From: Candidatus Aenigmatarchaeota archaeon
GTDB lineage: Archaea; Aenigmatarchaeota; Aenigmatarchaeia; Aenigmatarchaeales; JACQIB01
Assembly (NCBI GenBank): GCA_016198755.1
Contig: JACQIB010000005.1
Location: 96,001-160,000, forward strand
Length of the DNA stretch: 64,000 nucleotides
Direction: 5' to 3'
The notes under the pieces are model-generated. The model did not search any database. It was given only the letters and a program-made list of their open reading frames with translations, and had not been told where the DNA came from. The stretch's first letter is position 1, and each line of letters starts with the position of its first letter. Below, piece by piece: positions 2 through 62,714 of the stretch. The translations under genes and the position numbers were made by a program.

Positions 2-1720
2 CATCACATTTATTGCTCTTTCAGCATCCTGAACTTCAACTGTTGGAGATAGCCTTATTTTAGCTGAAGCTTCTGAAAGCCTGATTAATGCTTCGTTCTG
101 CCTGAGTGTTATTGCTACTGTGTTTGAGCCTGAGTATAGACTTCTCATTGTCAGATAAAACTGCTTTAACCTCTCAGCTGCTTCGCGTGTCATTATTGGA
201 TGGGCATTTTTCCTGCAATAAGCTATGTATTTTCTCAAAAACTCTGGCTTGATTAGAGGTTCTACTTTTTCTGGTGCAAGCCTTGTTTCCAGAATATGCG
301 CAGCTAACTTTTCATCCTTTACTGGATCTGGAATATCTCTCAGGGCAAACTTTAGGTCAAACCTGCTTAACAGAGTATCTGGTATTGTTAATTGTTCAGC
401 TATAGATTTGTATGGATCAAATCTGGAAAATTTTGGATTTGCACCAGCCAATACAGAAACCTGAGCTGGGAGCGTTGCAACTATAGAGGCTTTTGCTATG
501 CTCACAGTCTGCTGTTCTAAAGCCTCGTGCATAGCAACCTGATCCTCAACTGAAATTTTGTCAAACTCATCTATTGCCATTATTCCCTTATTTGCCAGAA
601 CCATTGCGCCTGCTTCCAGCACCCAGCCTCCCATTAACTCCTCATCTTTGACTACAGTCGCGGTCAGACCAGCGCCAGTTGCACCCCTTCCTGAAACATA
701 CTTGCCGCGCGGGATTATTGAGGAAGTGAGCTTTAGCAATTGGGATTTTGCCACTCCCGGATCTCCTAAAAGCAAAACGTGAATATCGCCCCTGATTTTT
801 GTACCATCAGGGAACTTATGCCTGACACCCCCGAAAAGTTGCAATATTATAGCATCCTTAATCTCACCCAGACCGTATATCGAGGGAGCAAGAGACTCGC
901 GCAGCTTTTTATAAATCTCCGGATCTGCTGCAAACTCCATTATCTTTTCCTCATCCTGAGCTGTTGTGTTTACCTCTTCCCACTCTACATCAGTTGATTC
1001 AATGGAATTTGTTTCTATGAACATCTCCATTTGAGTTTTCATTCTTCCCTTTATCATCCTATGCAGCTCTTTTACAATCCCTACAATCTTCAGCCTGTTG
1101 CCAGGGTCTGTTTTCCTCTGCATATCAGGAGTTGTCAGATCCTCTTTCATGGAAATATTTACTTCACCTGGCCTTTCCCCGCTTGCTGTTTCATAAGGCT
1201 CCTCCAAAGTTATAACACGGGAATCATACAGCTTCCTGTCCACCATATCAAACCTTGCTTTTATTCCGCATTCAGGACAGGCTACTGGGCCGTTTAACAT
1301 CCTTTCCTTCTGCTCAACACCAAATTTTGCAGTACATTCAGGGCACTGGAAAATAGCTATTGAAATTTCCGGCCTGACCTCAGAAGCTCTCCTTACTGTA
1401 CCTTCTACAGCAATAAATTTCCCTATATGTTCTGAACGTAAGCTGCGTATCCTTATTGTTGCTGATTCCGGCAAATTAATGAACCTGACTTTAAACCCTT
1501 CTGTTCCTTCAGGAACATCAAGCTCGCGCAGGGCAAAGTTTACAATGGGCAGGAGCCTTTCTGGTTCGTTTAAAAGCTTGTCAGCCAGTTCAGGATCAAA
1601 TTTATCCAGATTTGAAAAATCAACTGCAATAGATTTTTTTCCTTCCCTTGTAGCTGTCAGTAAATCCTGCTCATAAAACTGCCTTAAAAATTCCTCAAAT
1701 CTTTCCTGTTCATTATCCAT
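2..1720 (-). CDS. mcm: MCM replicative helicase (3' end runs off the window start)
   Basis: Not in the ORF track. Manual translation from ATG at 1720 gives MDNEQERFEEFL..., zinc finger FQCPEC, Walker A GDIHVLLLGDPGVAKSQLL, Walker B IDEFDK, arginine finger LLSRFDL, and ITLRQNEALIRLSEA. Confidence 0.95.
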   Translation of the reverse strand, partial: MDNEQERFEEFLRQFYEQDLLTATREGKKSIAVDFSNLDKFDPELADKLLNEPERLLPIVNFALRELDVPEGTEGFKVRFINLPESATIRIRSLRSEHIGKFIAVEGTVRRASEVRPEISIAIFQCPECTAKFGVEQKERMLNGPVACPECGIKARFDMVDRKLYDSRVITLEEPYETASGERPGEVNISMKEDLTTPDMQRKTDPGNRLKIVGIVKELHRMIKGRMKTQMEMFIETNSIESTDVEWEEVNTTAQDEEKIMEFAADPEIYKKLRESLAPSIYGLGEIKDAIILQLFGGVRHKFPDGTKIRGDIHVLLLGDPGVAKSQLLKLTSSIIPRGKYVSGRGATGAGLTATVVKDEELMGGWVLEAGAMVLANKGIMAIDEFDKISVEDQVAMHEALEQQTVSIAKASIVATLPAQVSVLAGANPKFSRFDPYKSIAEQLTIPDTLLSRFDLKFALRDIPDPVKDEKLAAHILETRLAPEKVEPLIKPEFLRKYIAYCRKNAHPIMTREAAERLKQFYLTMRSLYSGSNTVAITLRQNEALIRLSEASAKIRLSPTVEVQDAERAINVM

Positions 1721-1917
1721 TTTCCCACCCAAAAAGAGTTGGAGAGAATAGAATTTCCAAAGGTTAAATAGCTGAATGGAACTGAGAAAAAGTGAATCCA
1801 TGGGAAATTTTTTCTTTAACCTAAGCTTCCAGTGGGCAGGTAAACTGCTCAACAGAAAAGTTCTTAAACCTACCTACGGGAAAGAAAGTATTAATTCTAG
1901 ATTTGAGAATTTATTCC

Positions 1918-2325
1918 ATGGCTGTGGGGGCTGCAGAAGGGGTAAGAGAGGTGGTGGATGTTGATTTTTTAGCTGTTGCTATAGAACAACCAGTACTATT
2001 GGCTCTTATGCTAGATCTTAATGGCCGGAGACCGATGGATAGGGGTGCTTATGGAACTGCTTTCACATCAAGATACAACAAAGAGCATCAACCCCCTACT
2101 ACACAACAATACGTGGATGGTGTAATAGGAATTCTGGTTGAGAGAGGTATTGTTGGAACAACTCCAACAATTGATGGAGAAGATGTTTATGTCAATAAAG
2201 GACAACAGGCTCTGTTCGCTGTGCTTGGAAAATACAAAGTTGAAAGTGGTTGTGTTATTACAAAACCCAATGGACATTCAACACCGAGAAGCCAGCTACC
2301 TATTTTTGAACAAAAACAAACTTAG
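1918..2325 (+). CDS. hypothetical protein (ORFan)
   Basis: Open ORF from ATG 1918 (MAVGAAEG...); no recognisable motif; stop codon lies inside the repeat at 2315-2378. Confidence 0.6.
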   Translation: MAVGAAEGVREVVDVDFLAVAIEQPVLLALMLDLNGRRPMDRGAYGTAFTSRYNKEHQPPTTQQYVDGVIGILVERGIVGTTPTIDGEDVYVNKGQQALFAVLGKYKVESGCVITKPNGHSTPRSQLPIFEQKQT

Positions 2326-59601: not shown

Positions 59602-59841
59602 ATGTTTAACATGGGAACGCAGATTACAATAAGAGATGTGGATACGAAAACATTTAGGGAGTTTAAGGCTGCATCTGTGTCTAGGGGATTGAAATTGGGA
59701 ACTGCAGTAACTTTGGCCATGGAAAAATTCAAGTCAGAAATAGAGGGAAAGGAAAAATTTGCAGCGCTAAAACCCATTAAATGGGGGAAAGGAACGGAAC
59801 GAGTAAGCGAAGATGTTGACAAAATACTTTATGGCGAGTGA
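59602..59841 (+). CDS. VapB-type antitoxin (ribbon-helix-helix)
   Basis: ITIRDVD...SEDVDKILYGE; GTGA overlap with the PIN gene. Confidence 0.8.
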   Translation: MFNMGTQITIRDVDTKTFREFKAASVSRGLKLGTAVTLAMEKFKSEIEGKEKFAALKPIKWGKGTERVSEDVDKILYGE

Positions 59842-60236
59842 AAATGATCTTTATAGATGCCAGTTTTTTTCTGGCTTATGATAACGAAAATGATGTGCAC
59901 CACAGCAGAGCTTTGGCTATTTTGGATGATATAGAAAAATATGGTCCTGTATTTACATCTGATTATATTCTAAATGAAGTTGTAGGAGTTGGCCTTAGAA
60001 AACTGGGAAAGGAGAGAGCCGTTACTTTGGGACAGCACATACTAAAAACAACTTTCATTATTAATGTAGATGAACATATTTTTTCTGAGAGTTGGGGAGC
60101 ATTTTCAAAGACCGATCTTAATTTAAGTCTTGTTGACTGCACGACATTGGTTATTATGAAGCTTGCGAATGCTGGCAAAATTGCAACCTTTGATAAAGAA
60201 TTCAGAAAAATAAATTATTTGGATGTTTTGGAGTAA
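59838..60236 (+). CDS. vapC: VapC PIN-domain toxin
   Basis: FIDASF, YILNEV, SLVDC, TFDKEF. Confidence 0.9.
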   Translation: MKMIFIDASFFLAYDNENDVHHSRALAILDDIEKYGPVFTSDYILNEVVGVGLRKLGKERAVTLGQHILKTTFIINVDEHIFSESWGAFSKTDLNLSLVDCTTLVIMKLANAGKIATFDKEFRKINYLDVLE

Positions 60237-60846: not shown

Positions 60847-61626
60847 ATGGTAACAACAAACAGGGATATAATAGATAATTTAGCTCCTCTGCTGGATTCC
60901 CCTAAATACAATGAACAGGGGATTGGAGCTCCACTAAGGTTTGTGAATGGTTCTGTTGATGGGCAACTGGACTGGAAAAAGAAAGGTTACCTATCCAGAT
61001 TAACATGGTCTGAGGCAAGGAGAGTTGCTGGATTAAGGGGGGAGAAATTGTGCTCCCTTCCAGGAGCGATTGCAAACCTTAGCTTTATTCCTGATGGGTA
61101 TGGGGTTCATTTGGCTGGACCTGTTTTTTATAGACCCGAACCTGTTGGGACTGCAAAACCTGCTGCTGAAGGGATAAGGGTTGAGAGGGTTTATATGCTA
61201 AAGGAACCTGCGGTAACCCTTAGTGGAGAGCAGGTTGTGCTGGATGGAGTGAATGTAAAAAATGGTTCATTGGTATGCAAAGATTTTATAGATGCTGAGC
61301 TGGCATTTGAGGATTATAGATTGAGAGCTGTTGGAATGGATGATTTTATTGGGCTTGCTGAAAGAAATGGGCTGTTTAGGAGGGGTGAACTGGAGGCTGT
61401 TAGTATAAGGGATTTGGAGGAACAGCCGAAAGCTGAAGAAAGGGTTGTTCTTGACAAAAAAGTGCATTTCCAGTTTGGTGGGGGGAGATGGGCTCTTCCA
61501 AAATTAAGTTCTTTGGGTAATAGGGTTACAGAAGAGGGGAATAATGTTGCTTTGCTTTATGTTGAGTTTGTGCCAGCAACTGAAGCTGATGGATTTACTC
61601 TAGTAATGCCGGAAAGAAAGATTTAA
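60847..61626 (+). CDS. hypothetical protein (ORFan)
   Basis: 259 aa open frame, no recognisable motif. Confidence 0.6.
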   Translation: MVTTNRDIIDNLAPLLDSPKYNEQGIGAPLRFVNGSVDGQLDWKKKGYLSRLTWSEARRVAGLRGEKLCSLPGAIANLSFIPDGYGVHLAGPVFYRPEPVGTAKPAAEGIRVERVYMLKEPAVTLSGEQVVLDGVNVKNGSLVCKDFIDAELAFEDYRLRAVGMDDFIGLAERNGLFRRGELEAVSIRDLEEQPKAEERVVLDKKVHFQFGGGRWALPKLSSLGNRVTEEGNNVALLYVEFVPATEADGFTLVMPERKI

Positions 61627-61630
61627 AATG

Positions 61631-61812
61631 ACCGTCAGGTGCAAGGGGCCGAAGCCCCAAGCCTGCGGTTGCTCTTGCTCTTTGGGTTTGTGAAAACCTT
61701 TGGCACTCACCTCTCAAATTAAATTGCTGCCGGCGGGGTTTTCATCCGCAGCAGCTGAAAAGAGTTACCGGCCCTCACAGGAGGTATCTGTAAGAGCCCA
61801 CCGCGCTGACCA
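61631..61812 (-). ncRNA. candidate structured RNA / leader (unidentified)
   Basis: GC-rich intergenic block with three hairpins (61770-61798, 61726-61755, 61631-61669 including GGGGC-UUCG-GCCCC on the minus strand); TTTATATA box at 61827-61834. Confidence 0.55.
61635..61706 (-). CDS. candidate 23-aa peptide within the structured RNA
   Basis: GAGAGGTGA directly before GTG; MPKVFTNPKSKSNRRLGASAPCT-TGA. Confidence 0.35.
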   Translation of the reverse strand: MPKVFTNPKSKSNRRLGASAPCT

Positions 61813-61875
61813 GAACTATGGGGGAGTATATAAACTCCTTATGAAGAGGTAATAGGGACTTTAGGTTCAGCTTTT

Positions 61876-62655
61876 TCAGGGCTTTTGGAAAGCTAGGAAA
61901 ACCCCTTCTATATCGTCTCCATTAATTCCGGAAGAATGGACTCTCTCGTTTCCTGCTTTTGAAAACCCTTCAGAAAGCATAGCAGCCTGTGTCATATCTC
62001 TATACTCGTCAAAAATAGGTATACTCAGCCTGTCATAGATTATTACCATACCATGTGGCATAACCCAAGAAGATACTAAAGGAGCTACTCTCCTTCTTAA
62101 AAATGCTGCAGATTCTGGGTTGGAAAGTCTGGTATTATGGGCTTCAGTAATGGTAGCCACTATATTTGTTAAAACAACTGCATCGTATTTTTTGTCAGGT
62201 TTGTAAGTTAAAACGTCCTGCACAGAAAAGCTTGCATTGGCTGCAGAATATTTGGCTTTTCTCGTTTCTGCAACCTGTATTGATTCATCCACCATATCAA
62301 TTCCGTGCACTGTTGATTCTGGGTTTTGCAAAGCATACCAGACAGTTTTCAGTCCTGTAAAGCAGCCTGCATCAAGTATAGCTTTTCTTCCTTTTAGTTT
62401 CCTGTTTACCTTTTCTGTTATTGTTAGATTCTCTCCGTATTTAGCTGATTCAAAAAGATGGTCTACACCATTACTTGCCTGGAAGGCATAAGCTGAAAAA
62501 TCAGCACTGCTTGGACGCTGCGCGTTCCCAAGAAGACGAAACAGTTCTCTGGCCTTATCTATGCCGAGTATGGAAATCTCTTCTTCTACTAGCTGAGAGT
62601 CACTGATTCTTCTCACGCCTTCTGCTGCTAAATAGGCTGGCAGGCTAAGAACCAT
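61876..62655 (-). CDS. class I SAM-dependent methyltransferase
   Basis: ILDAGCFTG, VHGID, VQDV, YDAVV. Confidence 0.8.
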   Translation of the reverse strand: MVLSLPAYLAAEGVRRISDSQLVEEEISILGIDKARELFRLLGNAQRPSSADFSAYAFQASNGVDHLFESAKYGENLTITEKVNRKLKGRKAILDAGCFTGLKTVWYALQNPESTVHGIDMVDESIQVAETRKAKYSAANASFSVQDVLTYKPDKKYDAVVLTNIVATITEAHNTRLSNPESAAFLRRRVAPLVSSWVMPHGMVIIYDRLSIPIFDEYRDMTQAAMLSEGFSKAGNERVHSSGINGDDIEGVFLAFQKP

Positions 62656-62714
62656 TAGAAACCCCCAGTGCAAAAAGCTTTTAAAGGTTTGGTGGGAAGG
62701 ATGAATTGGTAATA

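Follow-up and report, generated by a model that had tools for sequence, protein, structure and literature searches.

Several classes of archaeal RNA offer points of comparison for a newly noticed non-coding locus. In Methanosarcina mazei, the small RNAs (sRNAs) sRNA154 and sRNA41 are intergenic and carry loops complementary to ribosome-binding sites (anti-RBS loops) that mask Shine-Dalgarno (SD) sites (PMC5867862, as excerpted). Split, tri-split and permuted transfer RNAs (tRNAs) are also known in Archaea, and introns between tRNA positions 59 and 60 are cut by a broad-specificity endonuclease in ARMAN-2 (PMC3239211, as excerpted). The locus considered here is a GC-rich RNA gene on the minus strand, at positions 61630-61812 of a 64,000-nucleotide (nt) stretch of the genome of a Candidatus Aenigmatarchaeota archaeon (assembly GCA_016198755.1, contig JACQIB010000005.1, positions 96,001 to 160,000 of the forward strand), and this whole stretch is called the window below. 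Judged from its sequence, the locus appears to be a genuine, independently promoted, non-coding and highly structured RNA gene of ~180 nt.

The predicted RNA has the intergenic position, own promoter and apparently non-coding character of the archaeal anti-RBS sRNAs, a class that is defined by function and not by sequence family. As far as the excerpted account of sRNA154 and sRNA41 extends (PMC5867862), the likeness includes an archaeal and SD-using host and a stem-loop with an RBS-complementary loop, whereas a sequence or Rfam relation is missing and the RNA of this locus is longer and far more structured. It differs from the two RNAs of that account also in its predicted four-way junction, two candidate pseudoknots, conservation of all linkers, and an anti-SD-like loop that has a partner within the same molecule.

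Promoter, conservation and secondary structure

The gene has a GC content of 56%, against 40.3% in the genome, which comprises 890,842 nt in 6 contigs (C1-C6) and is 89% complete. The initial annotation had proposed a structured minus-strand RNA of about 180 nt behind a TTTATATA box, and all the elements that it listed are present in the sequence, together with what reads as an archaeal promoter of the gene's own. The putative TATA box TTTATATA lies at 61827-61834 (minus strand) and is preceded by a purine-rich AAGGAG resembling a B recognition element. The conserved RNA body spans 61630-61812 (~177-183 nt), with the 5' end probably at 61804-61810. In the tRNA promoters of the same genome, which the promoter of the RNA gene resembles, the TATA box ends 22-27 nt ahead of tRNA position 1, and by analogy with this spacing transcription may start at ~61804-61807. 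The gene stands alone, as the adjacent genes diverge or converge both here and in the closest relative described below.

The strongest evidence for the gene is its conservation. A pattern scan of JGI metagenome contigs found a single locus, on contig L020 from the same genus, whose promoter reads AAGGGG-TTTATATA, so that the TATA box is kept. Synteny extends upstream to a 215-amino-acid (aa) membrane protein and a 104-aa winged helix-turn-helix (wHTH) protein, and downstream to a 158-aa wHTH protein (161 aa in the window) and methionyl-tRNA synthetase. With the tip of hairpin 3 excluded, the RNA differs from that of L020 by 3 substitutions in 169 nt, compared with 86-92% overall identity for three flanking genes, 69-79% identity at their third codon positions (21-31% differ) and 88% identity for the 93 nt upstream of the RNA (binomial P <= 2e-7 for the substitution count of the RNA). 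By these counts, almost all positions are under strong purifying selection. Three other studies contributed Logan contigs (X5, X6 and X7) that cover 61630-61812, 61630-61827 and 61630-61905, respectively, and run into unlike sequence past the covered ends; these contigs and L020 all diverge from the window at 61630. Contigs of a further study, X8 (151 nt), cover only small parts of the RNA, and one of them is apparently unrelated.

Relative to L020, the window contains three extra inserts, namely a methyltransferase-like gene (61876-62673, minus strand), a 259-aa open reading frame (ORF; 60847-61626, plus strand) and a two-gene pair (59602-60236, plus strand), which explain the differing flanks of the X5-X7 contigs. 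The last ~30 nt of the methyltransferase ORF are retained in L020, so the gene was probably lost there. Searches for orthologues among 60 relatives gave two weak partial matches for the methyltransferase and none for the 259-aa ORF, and both are lineage-specific inserts. The RNA gene is not mobile but sits in a syntenic place on the chromosome, and a scan of viral contigs for it gave no matches.

All three hairpins described in the initial annotation, as well as its GAGGUG-GUG and an ORF with its stop codon in the 3' hairpin, are located on the minus strand. Hairpin 1 (61770-61798) has an 11-bp stem and the 7-nt loop AUACCUC; hairpin 2 (61726-61755) pairs GCUGCU-GCGG with CCGC-C-GGCAGC around the 9-nt loop AUGAAAACC; and hairpin 3 (61645-61658) is GGGGC-UUCG-GCCCC. 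The differences in L020 preserve these pairings. In hairpin 1, a U-A pair becomes U.G at 61775 and a U.G pair becomes U-A at 61773; in hairpin 2, a C-to-U change at 61732 either turns a G-C pair at the base of the upper part into G.U or falls within the bulge; and the tip of hairpin 3 becomes GGGGG-UUAUUG-CCCCC, a compensatory C-G to G-C exchange with 2 extra nt that keeps the stem. The initial annotation had assigned the strand from G-U pairs and the cUUCGg loop. The former holds up, since the hairpin-1 changes would produce A-C mismatches on the plus strand and thus identify the minus strand as the RNA strand; the latter does not, as the change at the tip of hairpin 3 shows that the cUUCGg loop is not conserved.

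The 5' end of the RNA (GCGGU at 61800-61804 and GUCAG at 61806-61810) is able to pair with ACCGC (61665-61669) and CUGAC (61634-61638), the 3' partners in the closing helices P2 and P1, respectively. Alternatively, ACCGC and CUGAC can take part in a long 3' hairpin that excludes the pairing with the 5' end. Both of these mutually exclusive pairings, as originally proposed, exist in RNAfold predictions: the form closed between the 5' and 3' ends, with a four-way junction, is predicted at -74.7 kcal/mol, and the long 3' hairpin form, obtained with the 5' end held free, at -69.3 kcal/mol (a gap of 5.4 kcal/mol). With a shortened 5' end, the two forms come within 1-2 kcal/mol of each other, and a hypothetical switch between two folds would be possible on physical grounds. 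The ACCGC...CUGAC region is invariant in L020, and covariation speaks for neither form. In the closed form, P1 and P2 would seal a four-way junction whose other arms are hairpin 1, a short hairpin and a long arm with hairpin 2 at its end. The fold has a z-score of -2.35 against 200 dinucleotide shuffles, 6 of which were equal or better, so folding energy alone gives only a modest signal and the strong evidence is conservation.

In the sequences searched, the gene was so far confined to one DPANN genus; the metagenomes that contain it are from groundwater and soil and belong to several studies. In BLAST searches of 60 relatives and of 370 other genomes from the class, no homologue was found, only matches of 24-35 nt, which were rejected as a tRNA-Gly junction (G047), coding DNA (G243 and G004) and a promoter-like sequence (G032). 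A covariance model of the RNA, R1, recognised none in 100 relatives, where a match of 17.8 bits in AT-rich coding-like DNA of G067 was judged spurious; none in 6 genomes of the same family (80-92% complete); none at 14 loci syntenic for the membrane-protein orthologue (best 7.9 bits); and none at 4 pattern-match loci. The 215-aa membrane protein, used as query in a protein scan of genome contigs, led to no confirmed relative. A collection of homologues had been suggested as a check on the RNA; in the same-genus L020, the RNA is kept with pair-preserving changes and the reading frame discussed below is shifted.

Some observations stand beside these results. The gene at 61876-62673 resembles S-adenosylmethionine-dependent methyltransferases by a motif read by eye, and the pair at 59602-60236 resembles, also by eye, a ribbon-helix-helix antitoxin with a PIN toxin. 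The promoter-proximal motif CATAAGGAGTTTATATA (within 61813-61905 of the window) recurs ahead of an ORF at C3:183467-183486, where it reads as an SD sequence with spacer, and also adjoins the membrane-protein orthologue in G032 (L006 ~1500-1530), either as a shared promoter module or by chance. An intergenic, GC-rich and hairpin-rich stretch between two TATA-like boxes in G327 (L042 ~1440-1600, minus strand) has 17 nt in common with hairpin 2 of L020; R1 does not recognise this stretch, which may be another hidden tRNA or structured RNA.

Loop pairings and the embedded reading frame

The hairpin-2 loop sequence UGAAAACC (61737-61744) is perfectly complementary, over 8 Watson-Crick pairs, to the downstream stretch GGUUUUCA (61691-61698, minus strand), which is invariant in L020 and would form a candidate pseudoknot with the loop. 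This complementarity is a structural observation new in this analysis. It was reached in 0.1% of mononucleotide shuffles and in 3.2% of shuffles that kept the context, and the UGAAAACC/GGUUUUCA duplex is predicted at -8.9 kcal/mol, compared with -2.8 kcal/mol for the local hairpin GGUUU-UCAC-AAACC given by RNAfold. Similarly, UACCUC (61781-61786) in the loop of hairpin 1 is complementary to GAGGUG at 61708-61713 (minus strand), which had been read as an RBS, over 6 bp including one G-U pair (-7.7 kcal/mol vs -5.4 kcal/mol for the competing local helix). The hairpin-1 and hairpin-2 loop pairings share the same geometry and would give two crossing candidate pseudoknots. On account of the hairpin-2 loop complement and this shared geometry, the supposed anti-SD and RBS elements probably serve as pairing partners inside a compact fold with two pseudoknots, rather than as translation signals.

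The ACCUCC of hairpin 1 equals the last six letters of the 3' end of the 16S ribosomal RNA (rRNA), which ends GGAUCACCUCC, and the organism uses SD sites, with GGAGGUGA-type motifs peaking 9-13 nt ahead of ATG in 583 long ORFs. The loop AUACCUC(C) has the letters of the 16S tail in a host that uses SD motifs, but it also has the candidate internal partner GAGGUG, so it may not be accessible.

The initial annotation had also read a micropeptide from the RNA, encoded by a 23-codon ORF (61635-61706, minus strand) with a GUG start at 61704-61706, a UGA stop at 61635-61637 in the 3' stem and the product (M/V)PKVFTNPKSKSNRRLGASAPCT. The comparison with L020 speaks against translation of this ORF. 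The 2-nt indel in the hairpin-3 tip shifts the frame and changes the 23-aa product into one of 48 aa that is different from residue 18 on, and the 17 shared codons contain no synonymous change; for these two reasons the ORF is judged non-coding. The SD-like GAGGUGA, which is complementary to the 16S tail over 7 nt (-11.7 kcal/mol), lies 1 nt from the GUG, compared with the 9-13 nt at which such motifs peak ahead of starts in this genome, and the spacing that had been called unusually short is indeed so. On the opposite strand, the three substitutions of the RNA fall on codon positions 3, 2 and 1 of an ORF at 61700-61852, which likewise fits a non-coding RNA.

Several regulatory readings lose their footing with these results. 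Comparison with L020 does not show the conserved translatable small ORF expected of a dual-function RNA or a type I toxin mRNA, and the proposed toxin-mRNA reading falls because the ORF is not conserved; type I toxins are in any case unlike a hydrophilic, basic peptide such as the product of the 23-codon ORF. No same-strand gene lies downstream of the RNA in this genome or in L020, so the suggested role as a leader or riboswitch acting in cis is out. The next gene converges on the RNA in both genomes (60847-61626, plus strand, here; 1591-2067, minus strand, in L020, where the RNA is on the plus strand).

Known RNA families and the tRNA resemblance

The RNA belongs to no described family. An Rfam covariance scan of the whole 64-kb window gave 0 matches at gathering score, in agreement with the initial annotation, which had recognised no family. 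At E<=10, the 901-nt region 61300-62200 gave 5 sub-threshold chance matches (best 17.4 bits vs a cut-off of 49); one noise match, resembling sR084, is irrelevant, as sR084 is described as a Yersinia plasmid sRNA. The signal recognition particle (SRP) RNA (RF01857), RNase P RNA (RF00373) and 5S rRNA (RF00001) have no match in the window, and their genuine copies lie elsewhere in the genome above the Rfam cut-offs (C3:212783-213055, C5:70763-71068 and C5:138216-138331, with 114, 112 and 74 bits, respectively). With the locus they share the character of a GC-rich island in an AT-rich genome, a closing helix between the 5' and 3' ends and a promoter of their own, and the SRP RNA of this genome shows no likeness to the locus RNA by eye.

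Other candidates were rejected on individual grounds. For a Y RNA, the Ro/TROVE protein PF05731 gave 0 matches in this 89% complete genome. Guide sRNAs have RUGAUGA and CUGA boxes ~50-60 nt apart, or a two-sided pseudouridylation pocket with an ACA box. Here, GGAUGA and CUGA are ~110 nt apart and the internal loop beneath hairpin 2 has nucleotides on one side only (0/9 nt), both as seen by eye, and no snoRNA match rose above noise in the Rfam scan of 61300-62200; neither a box C/D nor an H/ACA guide is indicated. Compared by eye with the customary consensus, hairpin 2 is without the GNRA-capped 34-nt layout of a group II intron domain V and without the tandem G.A partners of a K-turn or K-loop, and Rfam gave no match to either. 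A remnant of an integrase att site was rejected in view of the lack of a second copy, or of an intact tRNA with this end, in the assembly.

The closest lead among known RNAs concerns tRNA. In this genome, ARAGORN found 18 tRNAs and the Infernal tRNA model 16 above cut-off, compared with 37 genes in a scan of our own that required an encoded CCA and in which all genes end in NCCA. A T-loop intron at 59/60 is present in 22 of the 37, with the junction UUCAAA|G ... GAAAA|U (for example, C2:195917, minus strand; C1:55789, plus strand; C5:94398, plus strand; and C6:74268, minus strand), and ARAGORN recognises 35 of 38 sequences (one a duplicate) once this intron is removed. The introns measure ~12-100 nt, mostly ~50, and fall into four repeated sequence families common to different tRNAs, which suggests intron spread. 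Hairpin 2 can be written GGA-UGAA-AAC-CCCGC-CGGCAGC-A, which is how a 59/60 3' junction would be laid out, with one T-stem strand, 7 nt of acceptor strand and the discriminator base coming after it. The 5' strand of the hairpin, GCUGCUG, pairs with all 7 acceptor-like bases, giving a likeness to a tRNA acceptor/T-arm minihelix. In addition, the hairpin-2 region agrees in 31 of 35 nt with the 3' junction of a tRNA-Gly gene in G047 that has a T-loop intron (E ~1e-4 per genome), and the last 12 nt of hairpin 2 equal the T-stem and acceptor 3' strand of tRNA-Asp(GUC) in G112.

The strength of these matches is limited by comparable chance results. Among 371 genomes, the G047 match is no stronger than a plainly spurious coding match in G243, and a 15-nt hairpin-2 pattern also matches coding DNA by chance in G130 and G214. 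ARAGORN found 0 tRNA genes in the window, and RF00005 had no match at E<=10 in 61300-62200; a tRNA-model match inside the window at C3:100620-100661 (16.2 bits) was rejected as lying in coding sequence. A D-arm, an anticodon arm and a T-loop were looked for in the RNA and not found, with no UUC[AG]A except in the non-conserved UUCG loop. CCA is not encoded either: A-AUUUAA comes after the acceptor-like strand, and the 3' end of the RNA is GGUC. Threading by eye as a hidden multi-intron or permuted tRNA gave no arms, and with P1 as acceptor the stem has only 5 bp and no CCA. For the 5' half of a split tRNA, the 8 G[CT]GGGTTC[AG]A sites in the 890,842 nt of the genome are all complete tRNAs or coding DNA, and a regex scan of the assembly for a leader-complementary trailer matched only the locus itself; looser scans for a split partner (140, 1173 and 261 matches) gave only noise and were not used. 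The 95 nt past the would-be discriminator are as conserved as the remaining RNA.

The excerpted account of pre-tRNAs with 59/60 introns covers ARMAN-2, other DPANN and Thermoproteales (PMC3239211); the junction layout of hairpin 2 is shared with these, in a genome that is full of such introns. Compared with the pre-tRNAs and split halves of that account, the locus RNA is without D-arm, anticodon arm, T-loop, 5' exon or partner, and CCA. It also has a conserved 95-nt 3' extension, and its acceptor-like strand pairs with an adjacent mimic and not with a tRNA 5' end, in contrast to the pre-tRNAs described there (PMC3239211).

Of the two tRNA genes in these relatives, the tRNA-Gly lies at L005:1044-1231 with a T-loop intron of ~100 nt, and the tRNA-Asp(GUC) at L039 ~1501-1610 (minus strand) with a T-loop intron and an extra stem; both were missed by ARAGORN and encode no CCA. 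In the 16S gene of the present genome (C2 ~202709, minus strand), the 530-loop sequence GUGCCA...GCCGCGGUAA is seemingly interrupted by an insert beginning UGUUCAAAG|UCAG, which has a junction like that of the tRNA T-loop introns and may be an rRNA intron. A similar UUCGAAA site occurs in the 23S gene (C5 ~28576).

Mechanism and rival explanations

The reading that we place ahead of the others, tentatively and at somewhat less than even odds, is that of a trans-acting folded RNA or ribonucleoprotein (RNP). The RNA would be transcribed from its own promoter, close its four-way junction through P1 and P2, and pair the apical loops of hairpins 1 and 2 with the downstream stretches (UACCUC/GAGGUG and UGAAAACC/GGUUUUCA). 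It would then act in trans in a stably folded state, probably together with protein, which is the weakest step of the proposal. A free hairpin-1 loop, whose ACCUCC equals the 16S tail, could mask mRNA SD sites in the manner of sRNA154 and sRNA41 (PMC5867862, as excerpted).

A number of points weigh against this proposal. The RNA is known here from DNA alone. Only two haplotypes are known, since X5, X6 and X7 carry the L020 type, and the four informative changes consequently give structural support and not statistical covariation. The long arm, the helices P1 and P2 and the two proposed pseudoknots do not vary in L020 and yield no covariation information. The UACCUC/GAGGUG pairing, correctly noted at the outset as a complementarity, is not above chance on its own, as 10-16% of shuffles reach it. 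The 5' end is uncertain; with a start at ~61804-61807, part of GUCAG and hence of helix P1 may be outside the RNA, and P1 may not form. A hairpin-1 loop buried in a pseudoknot is not free to mask mRNAs, which sets one half of the mechanism against the other. In a BLAST search of the genome with the RNA as query, the matches measured only 14-22 nt, with no extended target complementarity, and the RNA was not found beyond the genus. Finally, linkers conserved almost throughout are seen more often in RNP or ribozyme-like RNAs than in base-pairing sRNAs.

A rival that is nearly as likely, though we would still call it doubtful, is an RNP scaffold, or a ribozyme or ligand-binding RNA, of a new class, with a compact tertiary fold that the two loop pairings and the four-way junction would create and whose function is independent of mRNA pairing. 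The invariance of nearly all nucleotides, single-stranded linkers included, against a 21-31% difference at neutral sites speaks for such an RNA, as do the rarity of the 8-bp loop complementarity in shuffles, the two crossing candidate pseudoknots and the lack of an mRNA target with long complementarity in the genome. On the other side, no homologues past one genus, and hence no covariation, are available for it, insertions make the neighbourhood unlike in the two genomes, with no conserved gene in it that names a protein partner, and Rfam gave no match to a ribozyme or riboswitch model. An origin from tRNA is an unlikely explanation. Hairpin 2 would be an acceptor/T-arm mimic derived from the 3' end of a 59/60-intron tRNA gene and recognised by RNase P, tRNase Z or the CCA-adding enzyme, and the cut 5' and 3' pieces would stay paired through P1 and P2. 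The abundance of 59/60 introns in this genome, the matching junction layout, the complete pairing of GCUGCUG with the acceptor-like bases and the tRNA-Gly and tRNA-Asp matches fit this idea, but UGAAAACC is explained at least equally well by its perfect downstream complement, the G047 match and the hairpin-2 pattern have equals in coding DNA, and a UUCRA T-loop, a G53-C61-type closing pair, an encoded CCA and an RF00005 match are all missing.

The same junction resemblance, with a promoter directly ahead of an intron-like leader, would also suit the 3' half of a split tRNA. In that case, positions 60-73 would come from this transcript, trans-spliced at a bulge-helix-bulge motif in the T-loop to a 5' half with a separate gene. 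Split and permuted tRNAs and 59/60 introns have precedents in Archaea, ARMAN-2 included (PMC3239211, as excerpted), and as the assembly is 89% complete a partner could lie on the missing DNA; we nevertheless give this explanation very little weight, as neither a 5' half nor a leader-complementary trailer was found in the assembly, CCA is not encoded, and the conservation of 95 nt past the discriminator is unlike a tRNA trailer. Slightly lower still stands the idea of an mRNA-like switch, with the GAGGUG RBS of the 23-aa basic peptide masked by the loop of hairpin 1 in a riboswitch-like, type-I-toxin-like or dual-function manner. The sequence does contain the ORF, the SD-like GAGGUGA and a complementary loop, and the alternative folds lie 5.4 kcal/mol apart, or closer with a shorter 5' end, but the loss of the frame in L020, the absence of synonymous substitutions, the 1-nt spacing and the nature of the peptide make it highly improbable. 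As a bolder extension, which we consider improbable on present evidence, the RNA may be the founding member of a new class of compact functional RNAs with two pseudoknots (a ribozyme, a sensor of ligands or proteins, or an RNP core), kept by a genome-reduced DPANN genus for an essential, lineage-specific job. Such a job may be, for example, dealing with the unusually many pre-tRNAs that have T-loop introns, the 3' junction and acceptor end of which are mimicked by hairpin 2.

Members of the DPANN group have very small genomes, and their non-coding RNAs past rRNA, tRNA, SRP RNA and RNase P RNA are almost unstudied. The narrow distribution of the RNA (one genus so far) limits its present weight, and it is at the same time a clean candidate for a new Rfam family. 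The locus also calls for caution in annotation, as an apparent RBS, an anti-RBS and a small ORF can arise as by-products of an RNA fold. That a genome of 0.89 Mb has kept this RNA almost intact, against a divergence of a quarter at neutral sites, suggests that the RNA is likely to matter to the cell.

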